A stretch of DNA of 29,213 nucleotides, from NCBI GenBank assembly GCA_963978095.1, contig CAXBQP010000038.1, forward strand, positions 1-29,213. Reading direction: 5' to 3'. The first letter of the stretch is position 1; every line of letters starts with the position of its first letter. The notes below the pieces were generated by a model. The model saw only the letters and a program-made list of their open reading frames with translations, made no database searches and was not told where the DNA came from. Positions 11,443 through 28,320 of the stretch are shown one piece after another. The position numbers and the translations under genes are program-made. The stretch comes from an uncultured bacterium (GTDB taxonomy: Bacteria > Gemmatimonadota > Gemmatimonadetes > Gemmatimonadales > Gemmatimonadaceae).

Positions 11443-13989
11443 TCAGTTCTCGCGCAGTGCCGCCATCGGCGTCTCGCGGAAGACGTCGCGGCTCGTCGCG
11501 AGGCCGATCGTGACCGCGAGTCCCATCATCAGCATCGCGATCGCCGCTGCCGCGCCGACGGCGGGCGAGAAGGATCCCTTGAACACGAAGTGGATCAGCC
11601 CCCACGCGCCGCCGAAGGACAGCACCATCCCGGCGAGCGCGCCGAGCGCCCCGAGGAGCGCGTATTCGACCAACAGGATTCGCATGATCTGCGATTGCGT
11701 GGCACCCAACGTCTTGAGCAACACGCTCTCGCGCAGACGGTCCCGGCGCGTCGCGGCCACGGCGCTGAAGAGGACCGGTACCCCCATGGCCAAACTGAAC
11801 AGGGCAAGGAAGCGCACGGCGAGACTCACCTTCTCGATGATCTCCGTGACGGTGCGACGCACGAGGGAGAGATCGATGCTGGAGACATTCGGATACCGCG
11901 ACACCGTTTGACGCTGGAGGCGGGCGATCGTCGTGTCGGCGCTGACGGCCGCCATCGTCACGAACTGCTTGGGCGCCGTCACCAACCCCTTGGTAGCGAA
12001 GACCGCGAAGAAGTTCGGCTCGAACCGCCCCCACGTCACGGCACGCAGGCTCGTGAGCTGCGACAGCACGCGCACACCCTGCACATCCCACGCGATCCGG
12101 TCGCCGATCGTCACTTTCAGCTGGGCCGCGACGTCCTGGTCGAGCGAGAGCTCGGTGACGCTATCGGGGAGCGTCGCCGCGCCGAACCACCGGCCGCTGA
12201 CGATCCGCTCCGTGCTGACCACCGTATCACGGTAGGTGGATCGGTATTCGCGGCGCAGCGTCCAGTGGTTCGCGGGCATCGCGTGTGCCGCTGCCCACCG
12301 GACGCCGCTCACCCCATTGATCTCGGCGATCTTCATCGTCACGATCGGCGAGTAGCCCATGACATGCTGGCCTTCGGCCGAGAAGATGGAATCGAGCCCG
12401 GCGCGCTGATCCTCCTGGATGTCGAAGAGGATCATGTTCGCCTTGGACTGCGCCGCCGTCACGTTGAACTGGTTCAAGAGATTGGCCTGCACCAGAAACA
12501 GCGTGCTGACGAGAAACGCGCCGAATCCCAGCGCGAGCACGACGGTGCGCGTTTGGTTCCCCGGGCGGTACAGGTTGGCGAGCCCTTGCCGCACCACGTA
12601 CGGCCAGCGCGCCGTCCCGATGCGGCGCGCCAGCCACGACAGCGCGGCAGCGCTCAAATACAGCACGAGCACACTGCCCGCGATTCCGGCGGCGAAGCCC
12701 GCACCCCGCCGCACGGAGCCCGCGCGTTCGAAAGCGAGCGCCAGCACGCTGCCGATCAACGCCACGTTGACGAGCTGCGTCGGAAGGTCGCGCGCCCGCG
12801 CACGGTCCAGCGCGTCGGCGTCACGACGCAACGCTTGCAGCGGTGACACGCGGCGCACGCCGAGCAGCGGGCGCAGGGCGAAGACCAGCGCCACCCACAC
12901 GCCGATCCCGAGCCCCGTGAGCAACGCCTTGACGTCAAGGGCAACGCGGACGTCCACCGGCAGGAAGTCCTTGAGGACGAGCGGAAGGCCGAACTGGATG
13001 GCGATGCCGAGTGCGGCACCCAGGGCCGCCCCGAGGAACCCCATCACGCTCGCCTGCAACACGTAGATCGCGAGCACCTGGCCGCTGGTCGCCCCCAGGC
13101 AGCGGAGGACGGCCACGGTCTCGATCTTGCGCGACACGAACGCGTTGACGCCACTCGCGACGCCGATGCCGCCGAGCAGCAGCGCGATCAATCCGACGAT
13201 CCCCAGGAAGTCGGCGAGCTGCCCGATGGATTCCGTGAGATTCGATTCACGCTGCGTCACCGTGACGACGCGCACATTCTGTTTCTGGAACCGCGCCCGA
13301 TACGCCTTGACCCAGTCATCGCTCGCCACCGACGACGGCAGCTTCACCAGCGCTTCATACGAGGCGCGGCTGCCGAACCCGAGCAGTTGCGTTTCCGCGG
13401 CGTAGCGCTCGGCGATGTACACGCGCGGGCCGATCGCCGCGGCGAATCCCGGGTCGCCGGGCATCGCCTCCACGGCGCCGATGATCTCGAAGCGCCCGAG
13501 ACCGATGCGGAGCGAGTCTCCGACCTTCGCGTCGAGCGCGATCAGCAGGGCAGGGTCGACCACGGCGCGTGGCCCCGTTTGGATGTCGTGCCACCGCCCG
13601 AGCGGTCGCGTCTCCACCGCCCCGTAATAGGGATACCCATCCCCCACCGCTTTCACCTGCGCGAGGCGTGTGCCGCCGGACCGCGGCGCGAGCACCATGG
13701 AACCAAAGCTGACCACCCGTGCGACCGGGGTGCCGTGGGCGGCGATGGTGTCCAAGGCGCGCTGGGCGTCCTCGGGGAACTGCGCATTGTAGGTGAAGGA
13801 CACGTCGCCGCCGAGCAGGGAGCGCGATTGCTCCTTGAGCGAACTCTGGACGTTCGCGGCGAATGAGTCGATCGCCACCAGCGCGGCGACGCCGAGCGAG
13901 ATGGACGACATGTACAGCAGGAGGCGACGACGCGCCGTGCGGCTCTCGCGCCACGCGAGTCGCGGAATGGCCGACCACCGCATCGCCAT
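11443..13989 (-). CDS. ybbP: FtsX/MacB-family ABC transporter permease, YbbP-like
   Basis: LAWRESR..., LLGGD, YPYYG, two FtsX-like membrane blocks (AVLRCLGAT, LLKTLGAT) and FDIQEDQ. Its start overlaps the ATPase stop (TGATG). Confidence 0.85.
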   Translation of the reverse strand: MAMRWSAIPRLAWRESRTARRRLLLYMSSISLGVAALVAIDSFAANVQSSLKEQSRSLLGGDVSFTYNAQFPEDAQRALDTIAAHGTPVARVVSFGSMVLAPRSGGTRLAQVKAVGDGYPYYGAVETRPLGRWHDIQTGPRAVVDPALLIALDAKVGDSLRIGLGRFEIIGAVEAMPGDPGFAAAIGPRVYIAERYAAETQLLGFGSRASYEALVKLPSSVASDDWVKAYRARFQKQNVRVVTVTQRESNLTESIGQLADFLGIVGLIALLLGGIGVASGVNAFVSRKIETVAVLRCLGATSGQVLAIYVLQASVMGFLGAALGAALGIAIQFGLPLVLKDFLPVDVRVALDVKALLTGLGIGVWVALVFALRPLLGVRRVSPLQALRRDADALDRARARDLPTQLVNVALIGSVLALAFERAGSVRRGAGFAAGIAGSVLVLYLSAAALSWLARRIGTARWPYVVRQGLANLYRPGNQTRTVVLALGFGAFLVSTLFLVQANLLNQFNVTAAQSKANMILFDIQEDQRAGLDSIFSAEGQHVMGYSPIVTMKIAEINGVSGVRWAAAHAMPANHWTLRREYRSTYRDTVVSTERIVSGRWFGAATLPDSVTELSLDQDVAAQLKVTIGDRIAWDVQGVRVLSQLTSLRAVTWGRFEPNFFAVFATKGLVTAPKQFVTMAAVSADTTIARLQRQTVSRYPNVSSIDLSLVRRTVTEIIEKVSLAVRFLALFSLAMGVPVLFSAVAATRRDRLRESVLLKTLGATQSQIMRILLVEYALLGALGALAGMVLSFGGAWGLIHFVFKGSFSPAVGAAAAIAMLMMGLAVTIGLATSRDVFRETPMAALREN

Positions 13990-14684
13990 CAGCCGGCGTC
14001 GCCGTTGGCGGCTGCCGTCGGCCGGTCTTCCACCACCTCGCCATCGCGCAGCCGGATCACGCGTCCCGTCCGCTCGGCGAGCGCGATGTCGTGGGTGACG
14101 ATCACGACCGTCGATCCGGACTCGCGGTTGAGTTCCTGGAGCAACGCCACGATCCGCTCCCCGGTGGCACCGTCCAGATTCCCTGTGGGCTCGTCCGCGA
14201 ACAGGATGCGCGGCTGGTTCGAGAACGCGCGCGCGATGGCCACGCGCTGTTGCTCGCCCCCCGAGAGCTGCGCCGGGAAATGCCCCGTGCGGTCGCCCAG
14301 TCCCACCCGGCGCAACAGCTCCCGGGCGCGGTCGCCCGCGCCGTCCTCCCCGCGCAATTCCAGCGGCACTTGCACATTTTCCAGTGCGGTGAGCGTCGGG
14401 ATCAGTTGGAACGATTGAAAGATGAATCCGACTTTCTGTCCGCGCAGCAGCGCACGCTGGTCCTCGGTCATCCGGGTGATGTCCACGCCGTCCAGGCTGA
14501 CGGCGCCAGCACTCGGCGTGTCGAGCCCGGCGAGCAATCCGAGGAGCGTGGTCTTGCCGCTCCCCGAGGGGCCGACGATCGCGACGAAGGCGCCTTGCGG
14601 GACGGAGAAGGACACCTGTTTCAGTACCGCCAGTCGGCCATTGCCGCTCTGGTATTCCTTCGTGAGGTTCGTGGCCGTGAGCAT
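13989..14684 (-). CDS. ybbA: ABC transporter ATP-binding protein, YbbA/LolD family
   Basis: Walker A GPSGSGKT, GFIFQSFQL, signature LSGGEQQR, ADEPTGNLD, VTHD. Start chosen at MLTATNLTKEY. Confidence 0.92.
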   Translation of the reverse strand: MLTATNLTKEYQSGNGRLAVLKQVSFSVPQGAFVAIVGPSGSGKTTLLGLLAGLDTPSAGAVSLDGVDITRMTEDQRALLRGQKVGFIFQSFQLIPTLTALENVQVPLELRGEDGAGDRARELLRRVGLGDRTGHFPAQLSGGEQQRVAIARAFSNQPRILFADEPTGNLDGATGERIVALLQELNRESGSTVVIVTHDIALAERTGRVIRLRDGEVVEDRPTAAANGDAG

Positions 14685-15483
14685 GAATGCAGCGGTGCAG
14701 GAAAGAAGCGGTGTCGCCCGGCGGCGCTGGACGCGCGGGATGATGGTCGGACTCGGACTGTTCGGCGCGGCGTGCGGCGGGCGCACGAGCGACGGGACAG
14801 CGGCGAAACCCCCGATGGCGAACCCCGGCGGGGACCCGTCGGTTCCTGTGGAATCAACCACCGCGGGGGCGCCGGTGGCAGTTGGCGTGAATTCGGTCGC
14901 CGGCCCCGACCGTACGGGGGCGCCTCGCGTCTTGTTTCTGGGGACGTCGCTCACCGCCGGCTACGGGCTCGACGACCCGGCGCGCGACAGTTGGCCCTCC
15001 GTGATCCAGGCCATCGCCGATTCGCTCCACGTCCCCCTGCAAGTCGTGAACGCCGGGCTGTCCGGGGAGACCTCCGCCGGCGCGCTGCGGCGTACGGAGT
15101 GGCTCCTGCGGCAACCCGCCGATCTCGTGGTGATCGAGACGGGCGCCAACGACGGGCTGCGCGGCCTGAATCCGGATTCCACCGCCGCCAATCTCCGGGC
15201 GATCGTCGCCAAGATCCGCGCCACCCTCCCCGCGGCGAAACTGCTGCTGGTACAGATGGAGGCCCCCACGAATCTGGGGGCGGCGTACACGCGGGATTTC
15301 CATGCACTGTACGGGCGCGTGGCGCGGGAGGCCAAGATTCCGCTCAGTCCGTTCCTGCTCGACGGGGTGGCCGGGGTGCGGACGCTGAATCAGGGGGACG
15401 GCATCCACCCGCTGCCCGAGGGGGCGCGGCGGGCGGCGCGGACCCTGTGGCCGTCGATTCGCCGGGCGCTCGGCCCAGGGTGA
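14683..15483 (+). CDS. tesA: SGNH arylesterase/acyl-CoA thioesterase I (TesA-like), probable lipoprotein; alternative start at 14740
   Basis: FLGTSLTAGYG, NAGLSGETS, ETGANDGLRG and DGIHP blocks, a lipobox-like FGAAC, and divergent orientation to ybbA as in E. coli. Confidence 0.85.
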   Translation: MNAAVQERSGVARRRWTRGMMVGLGLFGAACGGRTSDGTAAKPPMANPGGDPSVPVESTTAGAPVAVGVNSVAGPDRTGAPRVLFLGTSLTAGYGLDDPARDSWPSVIQAIADSLHVPLQVVNAGLSGETSAGALRRTEWLLRQPADLVVIETGANDGLRGLNPDSTAANLRAIVAKIRATLPAAKLLLVQMEAPTNLGAAYTRDFHALYGRVAREAKIPLSPFLLDGVAGVRTLNQGDGIHPLPEGARRAARTLWPSIRRALGPG

Positions 15484-15512
15484 GTCCGGCGGCCGGGGAG
15501 CCCCGCCACACG

Positions 15513-15541
15513 TTGACCCAACCGATTGTCTGGTTTATACT
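15513..15541 (+). promoter_or_regulatory. Sigma-70-type promoter of efp
   Basis: TTGACC-17 nt-TATACT, ending 50 nt upstream of the efp start. Confidence 0.8.
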
Positions 15542-15591
15542 TGAAGGCTACCTCCGAACACTTTCGAATCGCTCAAGAGGGATGTCGTTCA

Positions 15592-16158
15592 ATGGCAATG
15601 CCCGCCACCCAGATCCGTCGCGGAATGGTCCTCGTGTTCGAGGGCGATCCGTGCCGCGTCATCGAGTTTCGTCACCACACGCCGGGGAATCTCCGCGCGA
15701 TGGTGCAGGCCAAGCTGAAGAACCTGCGTAGCGGGAACAGCTTCGAGCATCGGTTCCGCGCGGCTGACTCGATCGAGAAGGCCGACATGGAGACGCACGA
15801 GTTGGAGTTCATGTATGCCGGCGGCGACACCTGGCACTTCATGAACACCGAGAACTACGACCAGCTCGAGATGGACGCCGAGACGTTGGGCGACAACGCG
15901 CAGTGGATGCAGTCGGGGATGAAGATCCTCGCCGAGTATTACAACGGCAAGGCGATCGGCATTCAGTTGCCGCAGCATCTGTCGTTGACGATCGTCGATA
16001 CCGCGCCGGTGATGAAGACCGCGACCAAGACGGCGAGCACCAAGCCGGCTGTGTTGGAGAACGGGGTGACAATCAACGTGCCCGAGTTCATCGCCAGCGG
16101 CGAGCGGGTGCGCGTGAACCCGACGACGGGCGAGTACATGGATCGGGCGAAGGACTGA
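15592..16158 (+). CDS. efp: Elongation factor P (non-canonical TPGNLR loop)
   Basis: 188 aa with the KOW/OB/OB layout: IRRGMV, KLKNLRSG, FMNTENYDQ, KPAVLENG, VPEFI..GE, TGEYMDR. GAGGGA RBS upstream. Confidence 0.95.
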   Translation: MAMPATQIRRGMVLVFEGDPCRVIEFRHHTPGNLRAMVQAKLKNLRSGNSFEHRFRAADSIEKADMETHELEFMYAGGDTWHFMNTENYDQLEMDAETLGDNAQWMQSGMKILAEYYNGKAIGIQLPQHLSLTIVDTAPVMKTATKTASTKPAVLENGVTINVPEFIASGERVRVNPTTGEYMDRAKD

Positions 16159-16217
16159 AGTCGGTTCGTTCGCTTCGCGCTTTTTTCAACAACTGACCAA
16201 AAAGTGGCGAGGTGAGG

Positions 16218-16246
16218 TTGAAGTCGCCAAGTCGCCGCGCTACGTT
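16218..16246 (+). promoter_or_regulatory. Sigma-70-type promoter of the tRNA cluster
   Basis: TTGAAG-17 nt-TACGTT, about 45 nt before tRNA-His. Confidence 0.7.
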
Positions 16247-16290
16247 TGAGGTCTGTACGAAATCCCGGCCGGGGGGTACCAACCGGCGAT

Positions 16291-16365
16291 GGTGACTGTA
16301 GCTCAATCGGTTAGAGCACCGGTCTGTGGCACCGGGGGTTGCGGGTTCAAGTCCCGTCAGTCACC
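16291..16365 (+). tRNA. tRNA-His (GTG) with encoded G-1
   Basis: G-1 plus acceptor stem GTGACTG/CAGTCAC, discriminator C, anticodon arm CCGGT-CTGTGGC-ACCGG, T-loop TTCAAGT. Confidence 0.97.
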
Positions 16366-16381
16366 CTGCTGTCGGAGTGTT

Positions 16382-16454
16382 AGGTCCGTAGCTCAATTGG
16401 TAGAGCACCGGTCTCCAAAACCGGCGGTTGGGGGTTCGATTCCCTCCGGGCCTG
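16382..16454 (+). tRNA. tRNA-Trp (CCA)
   Basis: Acceptor AGGTCCG/CGGGCCT, anticodon arm CCGGT-CTCCAAA-ACCGG, T-loop TTCGATT. Confidence 0.97.
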
Positions 16455-16490
16455 TCGACAAATGGGGATGCATCGGAAGTGAAGTCCTGC

Positions 16491-16563
16491 GGCGCTATCG
16501 TCTAGGGGACTAGGACACGGCCCTCTCAAGGCTGGAACACGGGTTCGAATCCCGTTAGCGCTA
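16491..16563 (+). tRNA. tRNA-Glu (CTC)
   Basis: Acceptor GGCGCTA/TAGCGCT, anticodon arm CGGCC-CTCTCAA-GGCTG, T-loop TTCGAAT. Confidence 0.96.
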
Positions 16564-16623
16564 TCTCACCGTGGTGTTGGGGGCAGGTTGCAGGTGGCAT
16601 GAGCAGCACAGCAGGCGATAGTC

Positions 16624-16695
16624 GGCCTCATCGTCTATCGGTTAGGACGGCACCCTTTCAAGGTGCAGAGACGGGTTCGACTCCCGTTGGGGCTA
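16624..16695 (+). tRNA. tRNA-Glu (TTC)
   Basis: Acceptor GGCCTCA/TGGGGCT, anticodon arm GCACC-CTTTCAA-GGTGC, T-loop TTCGACT. Confidence 0.96.
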
Positions 16696-16768
16696 TCGGG
16701 TCGACTCGGCGGCGACGACCAATCGCGGCATGCCGGTGCAGGTGCAGGGTCGGTGAAGGGTAGGTTCA

Positions 16769-16843
16769 GGGGGCGTAGCTCAGTTTGGTTAGAGCACTCG
16801 ACTGTCACTCGAGAGGTCGCGGGTTCGAGCCCCGTCGCTCCCG
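16769..16843 (+). tRNA. tRNA-Asp (GTC)
   Basis: Acceptor GGGGGCG/CGCTCCC, anticodon arm CTCGA-CTGTCAC-TCGAG, T-loop TTCGAGC. Confidence 0.97.
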
Positions 16844-16932
16844 TTGGAAGTATGGGCTCGCACGACAGGTTGTTGGCGGTTCGCAGGATCGGCATCAGCC
16901 CATCGACGCCGGACACAATGGAAGAGATCCTC

Positions 16933-17014
16933 GCCCTGGTGGTGAAACTGGTAGACACGCCATCTTGAGGGGGTGGTGCCGCAAGGCGTCTCGGTTCGAA
17001 TCCGAGCCAGGGCA
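16933..17014 (+). tRNA. tRNA-Leu (GAG)
   Basis: Acceptor GCCCTGG/CCAGGGC, anticodon arm CCATC-TTGAGGG-GGTGG, long variable arm GCC-GCAA-GGC. Confidence 0.97.
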
Positions 17015-17026
17015 TGAGGTTCCCTC

Positions 17027-17098
17027 GCCACAGTAGCTCAGTGGTAGAGCACTCGATTCGTAATCGAGCGGTCGTCGGTTCAATCCCGACCTGTGGCT
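17027..17098 (+). tRNA. tRNA-Thr (CGT)
   Basis: Acceptor GCCACAG/CTGTGGC, anticodon arm CTCGA-TTCGTAA-TCGAG, T-loop TTCAATC. Confidence 0.97.
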
Positions 17099-17124
17099 CT
17101 CGAGGTAAGCGGTTGATCGACGAC

Positions 17125-17161
17125 AACGTCCCGTCCCGGCATCATGCCAGGACGGGACGTT
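17125..17161. terminator. Hairpin closing the tRNA operon, possibly bidirectional with the convergent DoxX gene
   Basis: AACGTCCCGTCCcGGC-ATCAT-GCCaGGACGGGACGTT. Confidence 0.85.
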
Positions 17162-17207
17162 CGTCTTGCGGAGGTGCGTCAGCGGCCGCCTGAGCGGCCC
17201 CCGCCCC

Positions 17208-17594
17208 TCACCCCTTCGACGGCCGCGCCTGCAACAGCGGCAGGTACAACGTCCGGTACCCGTGCGCCGCCATGAACATCAATGCCGGCAGCACGACCCC
17301 CATCGGCCACTTCTCCGGGTCCAGTGTCAGGTGGAACCAGCTGATCACCACCACGATGGGCGACAAGACCACCAGCGCGAGCGGCGCAAAGAAACCGGTG
17401 AGAAGCGCCGCGCCGCACACGAGCTCCACCACCATCACGATGCTGAGCAGATGGCTGTTCACCATCGCCAACATGAAGTTCTGCGCGGCCGCGTTGGGCG
17501 GCAGCCCGCCAGCGCCCATCAGCTTGGCGACGCCGCTGACCAGAAAGAGGAGACCGAGAAGGATGCGACTGATCGTGGGGAGCTTGGCGAGCAT
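17208..17594 (-). CDS. DoxX-family membrane protein
   Basis: RILLGLLFLVSGVAKL, VELVCGAALLTGFFAPLALVVLSPI, FHLTLDP; about four hydrophobic helices. Confidence 0.85.
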   Translation of the reverse strand: MLAKLPTISRILLGLLFLVSGVAKLMGAGGLPPNAAAQNFMLAMVNSHLLSIVMVVELVCGAALLTGFFAPLALVVLSPIVVVISWFHLTLDPEKWPMGVVLPALMFMAAHGYRTLYLPLLQARPSKG

Positions 17595-28220: not shown

Positions 28221-28293
<73 letters not shown>

Positions 28294-28320
28294 CTGTCAG
28301 CTTCGCTTGTCTGGCACACG

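Follow-up and report, generated by a model that had tools for sequence, protein, structure and literature searches.

Introduction

In all characterised EF-Ps of which we are aware, the loop tip is occupied by a Lys or Arg, which is the site of both activity and modification, and to our knowledge every EF-P or IF5A that is mechanistically understood has a Lys or Arg tip, usually carrying a long modification. An EF-P of the PGKGP subfamily, found in Actinobacteria and Bacteroidota, was reportedly shown by Pinheiro and colleagues in 2020 to be active without modification, and a preprint of 2023 by Tomasiunaite and colleagues is said to describe a PGKGP-subfamily EF-P with the same property. Activity of unmodified PGKGP EF-Ps is likewise reported in the portions of the literature available to us. 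EfpL (YeiP) and the unmodified Arg-tip EF-Ps of Thermus, Deinococcus and others are described, in the available text of two studies, as working without modification by means of an Arg near the tip (PMC11611912, PMC12931083).

Volkwein et al. 2019 (PMC6544042) listed EF-Ps with an Asn at the tip in a catalogue, and Sieber et al. 2024 (PMC11611912) also mention them. According to the available sections of the former, a Pro two residues upstream of the Asn tip co-occurs with it in 100% of cases, E. coli EF-P is inactive as K34N and retains 3.8% of its activity as G35N, and a DHS-type activation was proposed for bacteria with Lys or Asn tips. Given that the E. coli K34N protein is inactive, an Asn tip alone is insufficient. 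Experiments on an Asn-tip EF-P were not found in the searchable literature.

Here we describe the EF-P encoded in the window, by which we mean the whole stretch of 29,213 nucleotides that was analyzed, from an uncultured bacterium of the Gemmatimonadaceae. It is a member of this already catalogued, uncharacterised class, with which it shares the Asn tip, the Pro at position -2, the three domains and the lack of a known modifier; as such, it is of the same kind and the type is not new. Beyond what the available sections of the catalogue contain are an invariant Arg at +2 of the tip, a non-Gly residue at +1, a kinship with PGKGP EF-Ps, the replacement of the ancestral Lys-type in Gemmatimonadales and the identification of the DHS-family gene as that of a homospermidine enzyme.

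Identity, fold and loop of the EF-P

The efp gene lies at 15592..16158 on the forward strand, and its 188-residue product was assigned to the Asn-tip subfamily of EF-P based on a stop-free open reading frame, profile and Pfam matches, alignment and a structural model. Both EF-P profiles were matched above their cut-offs (TIGR00038 at 214.3 bits against 185.8; NF001810 at 217.2 against 161), and the Pfam domains EFP_N, EFP and Elong-fact-P_C all three matched. The AF2 model has a mean pLDDT of 89.2 and in Foldseek gave TM scores of 0.83-0.94 to solved EF-Ps, including the ribosome-bound structures 4v6a and 6enj_w (TM 0.88 for the latter).

The seven-residue beta3-beta4 loop, T30-P31-G32-N33-L34-R35-A36, is encoded at 15679..15699 (+), within the stretch H28-H29-T30-P31-G32-N33-L34-R35-A36, and is apparent in the sequence, the alignment and the model, in which residues 30-36 are non-strand and are flanked by strands at 19-29 and 37-44. 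The original prediction had placed Asn33 of a loop reading HHTPGNLRA at the position of E. coli Lys34, and this reading is supported by the codons (AAT for N33 at 15688-15690, CGC for R35 at 15694-15696) and by the phmmer alignment to E. coli EF-P (6enj_w), where 'htpgnlram' stands over 'vkpgkgqaf' with no gap, such that T30-A36 pairs with E. coli K31-A37 and N33 with K34. There is thus no Lys or Arg at the tip, although positions -2 and -1 hold Pro and Gly (P31 and G32). Since the tip is Asn33, the gene was placed in the Asn-tip subgroup and not in any characterised EF-P type.

Loop I of domain III reads K142-T143-A144-T145 (16015..16026, +) in sequence and alignment, where E. coli has K-G-D-T. 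In the phmmer alignment 'vmktatk' stands over 'glkgdta', so the Thr of this loop is kept, the Asp is lost and the G-D-T motif is absent. The available text of one study (PMC12856214) assigns D145 and T146 of domain III loop I a role in contacting the E-site codon, and the loss of Asp145 may weaken such contacts. The C-terminal Y182...R185 (16135..16146, +) is retained in the translation and in the subfamily alignment, in which Y182, R185 and T145 are nearly invariant, so that both the K-T-A-T change and the kept C-terminal residues are as originally proposed.

Conservation of the Asn-tip loop

A clear pattern of conservation was apparent for the loop. All 121 close homologues, the query included, have P-G-N, and 31 of 31 subfamily members with 35-65% identity to the query show no variation at P31, G32, N33 and R35; on these two results the loop cannot be put down to chance variation. 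The peptide TPGNLRA is encoded in 124 of 201 genomes of the phylum with many synonymous codons, as compared to two matches for a reversed control pattern. To tally residues at the tip, we used the 106 near-full rows found among the best 150 representatives, of which 64 had an Asn tip, in each case with the Pro at -2, and 34 a Lys tip; in species-representative genomes, at least 600 stretches also had the Asn-tip and Pro signature. Asn-tip members belong to Gemmatimonadales, Acidobacteriota and other lineages, and their loop signature is H-x-T-P-G-N-[L/W/K]-R-[A/G]. No NCBIfam model specific to the Asn type was found, and the 31 subfamily members all scored above cut-off only on general EF-P models.

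The residues that follow the tip differ sharply between the two groups. At +1, all 64 Asn-tip rows have Leu, Trp or Lys and none has Gly, whereas Gly occupies this position in 34 of 34 Lys-tip rows, and at +2 an Arg is found in 63 of the 64 Asn-tip rows versus one of the 34 Lys-tip rows. The latter distribution lends real support to the suggestion that Arg35 may be the reaching residue. In domain III, G-D-T is also absent from 22 of the 34 Lys-tip representatives, indicating that K-T-A-T is not special to Asn-types and that G-D-T is not strictly defining.

Copy number and polyproline demand

The genome assembly is 91% complete and consists of 101 contigs. A search of it with TIGR00038 returned one locus, and tblastn with five EF-P types as queries (including the canonical Lys-type, the PGKGP-type and the 'GGQ-loop' paralogue) matched only 15592-16152 of the window's own contig, C38, the next match having E >= 0.11. 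We therefore rejected a second EF-P within this 91%-complete assembly. Of the 38 genomes sampled from this family within the phylum, 37 had an EF-P match, with one copy in 36 of them and two copies in one. The sister family has at least two EF-P homologues in 25 of 96 genomes, and Asn-type-only, Lys-type-only and both-type genomes are all present in it, a distribution that would fit one type having replaced the other. Three of the 40 EF-P regions that were fetched had been read out of frame and were excluded.

The host genome shows a continuing need for polyproline translation, as judged from its sequence. In a crude gene call, 118 of 1733 proteins contain PPP, with 159 motifs observed and 122 expected from composition, and ValRS keeps IPPPNVTG. 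In addition, the tRNA-Pro D-loop AGCCCGGTA is kept in all three tRNA-Pro genes. A YebC-family gene is also present (304 bits, above cut-off).

Promoter, tRNA array and RNA coverage

A sigma-70-like promoter, TTGACC-17 nt-TATACT (15513..15541, +; 10 of 12 matches), precedes the efp start by ~50 nt and was the only promoter-like site identified in 15300-17300, where shuffled sequences gave a mean of 0.2. Directly downstream of efp are seven tRNA genes, for His, Trp, Glu-CTC, Glu-TTC, Asp, Leu-GAG and Thr-CGT (16292..17099, +), and the same array follows efp at 11 of 13 loci of the Gemmatimonadaceae group versus none of seven loci of other lineages. No terminator-like site was detected in 15300-17300, including between efp and the tRNA array, which is a weak negative given a mean of 1.3 in shuffles. 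Together with the single copy, the promoter and the tRNA array agree with the earlier suggestion of a housekeeping gene that has its own promoter and is placed before tRNA genes.

The whole efp open reading frame is covered by contigs of four runs, all metatranscriptomes from one study, and such contigs also extend across the stop codon of efp into tRNA-His; they are blind to strand and level, and may be of DNA origin. In two runs a contig starts at 15577 and 15579, respectively, although contigs cannot prove a transcript start. The flanking bins at 14798-15481 had no RNA-library coverage, an observation that we did not count as evidence. The genome search for a second efp that had been suggested earlier thus returned none, and the window copy is the one with RNA-library coverage.

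Known modifiers and gene neighborhood

No known EF-P modifier genes were found in the window, and we extended the search to the genome. The genome-wide profile search for EpmA returned none, its best genX match (238.6 bits, cut-off 286.9) being the LysRS, which scores 531.8 bits on TIGR00499, above cut-off, and was rejected as a candidate. As such, the situation that would have told against the original prediction, namely a PGKG-type efp and EpmA elsewhere in the genome and a silent copy in the window, was not encountered. EpmB and EpmC had no match in the 91%-complete genome, and the E. coli controls for them were positive. EarP (PF10093) also had no match genome-wide, but its control was positive in none of 14 genomes, and so its absence is only weakly shown.

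The earlier statement that epmA, epmB, earP and deoxyhypusine synthase genes are lacking holds for the window and needs one correction for the genome, in that a DHS-family gene (231 bits) is present elsewhere, on contig C9. This gene was identified as that of a homospermidine biosynthesis protein by NF001980 (556.9 bits, cut-off 450), scored under the cut-off of each of the five deoxyhypusine synthase models, and has a LOG-family gene and greA as neighbors rather than efp. Among genomes of the phylum, 121 of the 124 that show the Asn-type pattern carry a gene of this family, as do 57 of the 77 that do not, and such a gene is lacking in three Asn-type genomes of 96-100% completeness.

Modifier genes might also be recognized by a conserved position next to efp, and we clustered 5622 stop-to-stop frames from 80 efp loci in three lineage groups. 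Other than efp itself and overlapping frames, no neighbor was common to Gemmatimonadaceae, other Gemmatimonadales and Acidobacteriota in these 80 loci. Lineage-specific neighbors were a MacB/FtsX-type ABC exporter and a GDSL hydrolase in Gemmatimonadaceae, a glyoxalase-family gene in other Gemmatimonadales, and waaA and lpxK in Acidobacteriota. Four of 12 cluster representatives that were scanned had no Pfam match and were taken as frames that overlap real genes. A conserved neighboring modifier was accordingly rejected for these loci.

Comparison with known EF-P types

The YmfI type of Bacillus has a 5-aminopentanolylated Lys32, YmfI being a short-chain dehydrogenase, and the window EF-P has no tip Lys. 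It also differs from the Lys-type modified by EpmA, EpmB and EpmC, as it has no Lys34 and neither EpmA nor EpmB was found, and from the deoxyhypusine type, there being neither a Lys acceptor nor, by score, a true DHS. The Arg-type modified by EarP has no Pro at -2, where the window protein has Pro31 together with its Asn tip. With E. coli EF-P it shares the fold, the loop length, the Pro at -2, the Gly at -1, the C-terminal Tyr and Arg, and the tRNA-Pro D-loop; it differs in the absence of the tip Lys and of EpmA/EpmB/EpmC, and in having T-A-T in place of G-D-T in domain III. The loop of EfpL is two residues longer and has an Arg tip, whereas that of the window EF-P is of canonical length with its Arg at +2, and the EfpL models scored below cut-off (NF003392, 142.7 versus 216; TIGR02178, 131.6 versus 264).

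With PGKGP EF-Ps it shares the seven-residue loop, the retained first Pro and the absence of modifier genes, and it falls on a common tree branch with proteins that carry their motif. The motif P-G-K-G-P is itself absent, the loop being P-G-N-L-R, such that the tip is Asn instead of Lys, Leu replaces Gly at +1 and Arg replaces the second Pro. In the careful tree (56 rows, loop masked), the Asn-types and the PGKGP-motif types are interleaved on a single well-supported branch (100/87), separate from the canonical Lys-types. A PGKGP group (99/93), whose rows were picked by motif alone, is nested inside the Gemmatimonadota Asn-type clade (93/97), the inner nodes being only partly well supported. 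As to a single origin of the Asn tip, the Asn label needs three changes on this tree, and its well-supported branches allow one. On the quick tree of 111 rows, in which the deep branches are weak, the label needs 12 changes, at least three of which are forced by well-supported branches.

Discussion

The presence of an Asn-tip EF-P in this genome is confirmed. In our view the most probable explanation, to which we give a probability of roughly 55%, is that this protein is a working, sole, housekeeping EF-P that acts unmodified and relies on its Asn33/Arg35 loop. The loop would have been rebuilt as a unit, in which the tip Lys was changed to Asn, the Gly at +1 to a bulky residue and the residue at +2 to an invariant Arg, and Arg35 together with Asn33 would contact the tRNA backbone in place of the long side chain of a modified Lys or Arg. 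That the protein is unmodified and that Arg35 has this role are what we infer, the latter from conservation alone. In view of the fact that the sole EF-P of the family has an Asn tip and that polyproline motifs, including the PPP of ValRS, are kept, the Asn-tip loop is probably sufficient for function. The overall interpretation first put forward for this gene therefore stands in part: a sole housekeeping EF-P and support for Arg35 were found, but a DHS-family gene is present outside the window and K-T-A-T is not special to Asn-types.

A less probable course, in our view, is that Asn33 or Arg35 carries a novel modification (for example, amide methylation, hydroxylation or glycosylation) made by an enzyme encoded away from efp. 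Most well-studied EF-Ps need a modification and E. coli K34N is inactive, the strict invariance of N33 and R35 is also what a motif recognized by an enzyme should show, and a modifier gene elsewhere in the genome would escape the tests made here. Set against this, known modifiers often travel with efp, as stated in the available text of one study (PMC12931083), whereas none of the genes beside efp recurred in all three lineage groups among the 80 loci; the closest relatives with a Lys tip have the motif PGKGP, that of a subfamily which reportedly works without modification; and N-L-R is not an N-x-S/T sequon. Modification by the DHS-family protein is an idea that we consider very improbable. 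Its attraction is that the gene is present, that the family is found in nearly all Asn-type genomes and that the idea has been published (PMC6544042, in its available sections), but its family assignment and distribution led us to reject it, the protein scoring as a homospermidine enzyme and the family being common in genomes without the Asn type and missing from three near-complete genomes with it. The gene also does not adjoin efp, and a 2026 review states, in its available part, that bacterial DHS homologues have not been tied to EF-P by any experiment. Further, DHS chemistry requires a lysine amine, and Asn33 has none.

A different explanation, which we regard as doubtful, is that the protein is weakened or re-specialised for other stall motifs or for a mainly structural role in the E site, with YebC or ABCF proteins rescuing most polyproline stalls. 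That both ribosome-facing loops depart from the E. coli pattern (the Asn tip and T-A-T) would fit such a change, as would the YebC-family gene, the different motif sets rescued by different EF-P types (PMC12931083, available text) and the sister-family genomes with two or more homologues, which suggest a division of labour there. However, YebC was also found in 10 of 14 control genomes and so says little, the loss of G-D-T is common in Lys-tip EF-Ps too, the sister-family pattern fits type replacement, and in its own family 36 of 38 genomes have this protein as their single EF-P, with polyproline motifs that are not depleted in the host. We give almost no credence to the idea that this copy is a relic, either inactive or unexpressed, and that another EF-P is encoded in the unassembled 9% of a genome that is only 91% complete and in 101 contigs, since the reading frame is uninterrupted, the loop shows no variation in hundreds of genomes, a promoter-like site and RNA-library contigs accompany the gene, and near-complete relatives in the family (95-100%) also have a single EF-P of the Asn type.

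A bolder and rather unlikely proposal is that P-G-N-x-R represents a fourth way of arming EF-P. This could be either by a novel modification of the Asn amide or of Arg35 by an unlinked enzyme or by contacts of an unmodified amide and guanidinium with the P-site tRNA's CCA end in a geometry that no solved EF-P resembles, and the ancestral Lys-type would have been displaced in a whole order. The coupled signature of Asn, non-Gly and Arg marks the residues of interest for mutation, and cultured relatives (Gemmatimonas and Chloracidobacterium) bring the question within reach of mass spectrometry and complementation. The outcome would be either a further design of unmodified EF-P or a new modification.

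An asparagine-tipped EF-P

The 188-codon open frame efp (15592-16158, plus strand) encodes a bona fide EF-P fold. Its product (the query) matches all three Pfam EF-P domains, scores 214.3 on TIGR00038 (cut-off 185.8) and is likewise above the curated cut-off of NF001810. With 31 subfamily members as input, AlphaFold2 gave a model with a mean pLDDT of 89.2, in which residues 30-36 are a non-strand stretch between two strands, and Foldseek gave TM values of 0.83-0.94 against solved EF-Ps, among them the ribosome-bound 6enj_w and 4v6a. The loop aligned gap-free in phmmer with 6enj_w, the E. coli EF-P from a stalled-ribosome structure ('htpgnlram' over 'vkpgkgqaf'), which upholds the original prediction of a loop HHTPGNLRA with Asn33 (AAT, 15688-15690, plus strand) at the position of E. 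coli Lys34; Arg35 stands at that of Gln36. The predicted domain III change from KGDT to KTAT was also correct ('vmktatk' over 'glkgdta'), as was every other checkable detail of that description; the available portions of a 2026 NAR review (PMC12856214) describe domain III Asp145 and Thr146 as touching the E-site codon.

A sigma-70-like site (TTGACC-17-TATACT, 15513-15541) lies upstream of efp and seven tRNA genes (16292-17099) lie downstream, as expected from the proposal that efp has its own promoter and precedes a tRNA operon. Also upstream are an ABC-transporter ATPase (13989-14954, minus strand) and a GDSL/SGNH hydrolase listed at 14422-15483 (plus strand), whose true start is probably later than 14422 because its frame overlaps that of the ATPase; many long frames in this high-G+C DNA are spurious, e.g. 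13863-15731.

Three central loop positions change together

Among the query and the 120 best of 4711 matches with E <= 1e-10, the loop read HHTPGNLRA in 120 of 121 and HHTPGNLRV in one. Scanning 1.84 billion cluster representatives with HMMER yielded 8009 matches at E <= 0.001, and tip residues were tallied in the 106 rows covering at least 175 of 188 positions among the best 150 of these plus the query, a sample biased towards the query's relatives. The tip was Asn in 64 of the 106, followed at the next position (+1) by Leu (41), Trp (13) or Lys (10) and never by Gly, and at +2 by Arg (63) or Pro (1). It was Lys in 34, with Gly at +1 in all 34 and a variable +2 (G, Q, P, N, T, S, A, K or V; R once); the remaining eight had Arg, Gln or a loop of other length. 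Across 31 aligned Asn-types with 35-65% identity to the query, G11, P31, G32, N33, R35, P127, K151, G158 and P164 were invariant and H28, T30, Y182 and R185 nearly so, the last two bearing out the predicted retention of the terminal Y..R. Judged from the tallies and this alignment, the subfamily signature reads H-x-T-P-G-N-[L/W/K]-R-[A/G], and the tip, +1 and +2 change together; the conservation of this ribosome-facing loop is as strict as that seen in any characterised EF-P type. The domain III GDT was retained in 7 of 64 Asn-tip versus 12 of 34 Lys-tip rows, x-A-T being common in both, and the domain III change appears less specific to Asn-types than that of the domain I loop.

One cluster representative, P0154, has an Asn-type domain I loop (V-E-H-R-T-P-G-N-L-R-A-F) and a domain III motif resembling the one in QPGKGGA Lys-types, with which it groups at 99 in a quick tree. 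Recombination or chimeric assembly of metagenome reads may have produced it, and it raises the apparent count of Asn/Lys switches.

A single EF-P copy in a genome with polyproline demand

The genome assembly is 2.98 Mb in 101 contigs and 91% complete, the window being contig C38. Within it efp is the only EF-P copy: TIGR00038 identified one locus, and tblastn with five other EF-P types from relatives (two canonical Lys-types, one PGKGP-type and two odd paralogues, described below) recovered this gene alone, the next best match having E >= 0.11. The second efp that the original prediction had considered was thus not found, and the best match to the EpmA model that it had likewise raised was a 515-aa LysRS, rejected as EpmA (TIGR00499 531.8 bits, above cut-off; genX about 237, below cut-off). 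EpmB and EpmC had no match in this 91%-complete genome, their controls being positive in E. coli; EarP had none there either, an absence weakly shown as its control was positive nowhere.

The genome still appears to need polyproline translation, as judged from its sequence. In a crude GC3-based gene call (1733 frames, 73% of the genome), PPP occurred in 118 frames, with 159 motifs observed versus 122 expected from composition, and PP in 996. The ValRS retains its proline triplet (IPPPNVTG), which reportedly depends on EF-P, and a YebC-family gene, a possible backup for EF-P, is present. All three tRNA-Pro genes have the D-loop AGCCCGGTA, and a nine-base D-loop is said to be a detail of EF-P recognition. 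That EF-P reads the P-site tRNA's D-loop is stated in the available portions of PMC12856214.

Distribution and phylogeny

Named close homologues of the query came from MAGs of Gemmatimonadaceae and other Gemmatimonadota. When one genome per prokaryote species was scanned with the pattern HxTPGN[LW]R[AG][FMI], at least 600 stretches matched, and tblastn confirmed 600 of 600. Going by record titles, 48 of the best 80 were Gemmatimonadota, 31 were Acidobacteriota (Pyrinomonadaceae, Blastocatellia, Thermoanaerobaculia and Chloracidobacterium) and one was named 'bacterium' only.

Across an even set of 201 phylum genomes, whose EF-P, DHS and DNA-pattern counts include four unpublished genomes (G057, G157, G182 and G097) that bear on no conclusion, 198 had an EF-P match to the query and 124 the DNA pattern for T-P-G-N-L-R-A, with two matches to the reversed control pattern. 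With the window's own genome left out, the pattern occurred in 37 of 38 genomes of the window's family (f1), in 82 of 96 (f2) and one of four (f4) from its sister families, in 3/3 of family f3 and in 0/59 of families f5-f12. Two extra forward matches (G034:C53 and G145:C20) encode T-P-G-N-L-S and lie outside EF-P matches. Exactly one EF-P match was present in 36 of 38 f1 genomes (two in G051, none in G052), and at least two in 25 of 96 f2 genomes.

Of 40 fetched EF-P regions, 37 were read in frame (the mis-framed L038, L068 and L074 were left out). These comprised 24 Asn-types, nine canonical Lys-types (eight reading HVKPGKGGAF; from the other families except for one, a second copy in the f2 genome G137), two KPGKGPA types, both from f4, and two odd paralogues with the loop HAGGGQMKG or HAGAGQMKG. 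The latter (L067, G134:C41:2342-2905; L070, G039:C1:102630-103184, minus strand) represent a third EF-P paralogue, which accompanies the Asn-type in some Gemmatimonadales; their loop (F-H-A-G-G-G-Q-M-K-G, variant A-G-A-G-Q-M-K-G) places a GGQ-like motif at the tip position of other EF-Ps. They score 165-176 on TIGR00038, below the cut-off of 185.8, are not EfpL, and form a well-supported quick-tree clade with a representative of loop Q-P-A-G-G-K-L-T-G. Tblastn with their sequences found none in the window's 91%-complete assembly.

A careful IQ-TREE analysis (56 rows, the seven loop residues masked, canonical KPGKG[G/S/Q]A types as root) separated the canonical types at 100/87 from a second branch. 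Every Gemmatimonadota Lys-type fell among the canonical types, as did the second G137 copy; the second branch held all Asn-types, PGKGP-motif types and some T-P-G-K-G-x types. Within it the Gemmatimonadota Asn-types formed a group (93/97), with a clade of Acidobacteriota Asn-types (97/98) as its neighbour. Nested in the former were the f4 KPGKGPA proteins (99/93; L059 from G167, L061 from G179, and P0135), which share 49% identity with the query and sit beside an f4 Asn-type (L045 from G027; 93/66), a natural pair for comparing the K-G-P and N-L-R loops. We infer that the ancestral EF-P of the phylum was a canonical Lys-type and that a member of the PGKGP/Asn branch was acquired by, or originated in, the order Gemmatimonadales, where it would coexist with the old Lys-type in some genomes and would have replaced it in the window's family. 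At least once within that branch, the tip would have changed between Lys (followed by G-P) and Asn (followed by L-R), in either direction. Both one and several origins of the Asn tip are compatible with the data, since a 111-row quick tree needs 12 changes of the Asn label, at least three of them forced by well-supported branches, and its deep nodes are weak.

Expression and the tRNA array

Contigs covering efp occurred in four metatranscriptome runs of one study: X7 (15577-16409, 4 differing letters), X11 (15628-16416), X12 (15579-16272, 14 differing letters, probably from a related strain) and X8 (two pieces, 15630-15950 and 15921-16411). They are a weak sign of efp expression, being contigs without strand or level from libraries that may contain DNA. 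In three of the four (X7, X8 and X11) they bridge the efp stop codon into tRNA-His. The same seven tRNAs (His, Trp, Glu, Glu, Asp, Leu, Thr, in that order) follow efp in 11 of 13 Gemmatimonadaceae-group loci, with two tRNAs in one locus and a contig edge in the other, and in 0 of 7 loci from other lineages; tRNA-Gly(CCC) often lies further downstream (28221-28294 in the window). No terminator-like site was found between efp and the array. Co-transcription is possible, the contigs being no proof of a single transcript.

The search for a modifier

When every stop-to-stop frame of 70 aa or more at 80 loci was clustered (5622 frames), no neighbour gene was common to the three lineage groups, which shared only efp and frames overlapping it. 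Its neighbours were a MacB/FtsX-type permease and an ABC ATPase upstream in Gemmatimonadaceae (also the GDSL hydrolase in the window), waaA and lpxK downstream in Acidobacteriota, and a glyoxalase-family gene in other Gemmatimonadales. The permease of relatives stands further upstream than the ATPase/hydrolase pair.

Volkwein et al. 2019 (PMC6544042) report that bacteria with Lys or Asn tips can have a DHS-like protein, and consider a link between it and Asn-tip EF-Ps plausible. The window's genome has one DHS-family gene (G000:C9:64817-65710). It reaches 556.9 bits on NF001980, the 'homospermidine biosynthesis protein' model with a cut-off of 450, and stays under the cut-off of each of the five deoxyhypusine synthase models. 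DHS-family genes occurred in 178 of 201 phylum genomes: in 121 of the 124 that carry the Asn-type pattern and in 57 of the other 77. We rejected the link to Asn-tip EF-Ps, at least for this phylum, because the family is also present in those 57 genomes without the pattern and absent from three Asn-type genomes (G050, G114 and G140) that are each 96-100% complete. At its fuller extent (G000:C9:64568-65812; L006:1252-2496) the gene has an N-terminal extension of ~60-80 residues, and it lies between a LOG-family gene ('possible lysine decarboxylase') and greA; phylum-wide score classes of about 325, 285, 230 and 140 bits suggest several DHS-family subtypes. Neither a known modifier nor an efp-linked candidate was found in the genome or at the 80 loci.

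Discussion

The Asn-tip class has already been noted in print, and the window's efp is a further member. Asn is among the tip residues in the available portions of Sieber et al. 2024 (PMC11611912), and those of Volkwein et al. 2019 report 100% co-occurrence of Pro32 with an Asn at the protruding position and, in their reconstruction, an origin of Asn after Arg. Unmodified types, including PGKGP, are described in a preprint by Tomasiunaite et al., in PMC12856214 and in Brewer et al. 2026 (PMC12931083); the available portions of these, of Brewer and Wagner 2024 (PMC11388002) and of a 2026 MMBR review (PMC13602936) do not mention Asn. In a full-text literature search, with subscription papers outside its scope, no work on the function of an Asn-tip EF-P was found, nor any on that of a Gemmatimonadota EF-P.

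We favour, at a probability of roughly 55%, the reading that the Asn-type EF-P works unmodified through a loop whose residues were remodelled together. Asn, which readily forms turns, would replace the Lys-Gly pair at the loop apex, and the invariant Arg at +2 would supply the positive group that reaches the tRNA backbone. In E. coli, none of K34A, K34M, K34N and K34Q is active, and G35N retains 3.8% and Q36S 21.1% (available portions of PMC6544042); a lone K34N thus abolishes activity there, whereas the query natively carries Asn at that position. The PGKGP types work unmodified with Lys and G-P, whereas the query has Asn and L-R.

An unknown modification of the Asn-type is a less likely alternative; the inactivity of E. 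coli K34N speaks for it, and the lack of a shared neighbour gene at the 80 loci against it. That the protein has a weakened or re-specialised role is rather unlikely; the altered domain III motif and the YebC-family gene speak for this idea, and the polyproline content of the genome against it. Most improbable, even taken jointly, are action of the DHS-family protein and a relic gene, the former having the frequency of the family among Asn-type genomes to its credit and the latter having the intact frame, the invariant loop, the promoter-like site and the RNA-library contigs against it. The value of the finding lies in an EF-P that is the sole copy in a whole family, in the coupled N / non-Gly / R signature and in the existence of cultured carriers, which together make a clean experiment possible.
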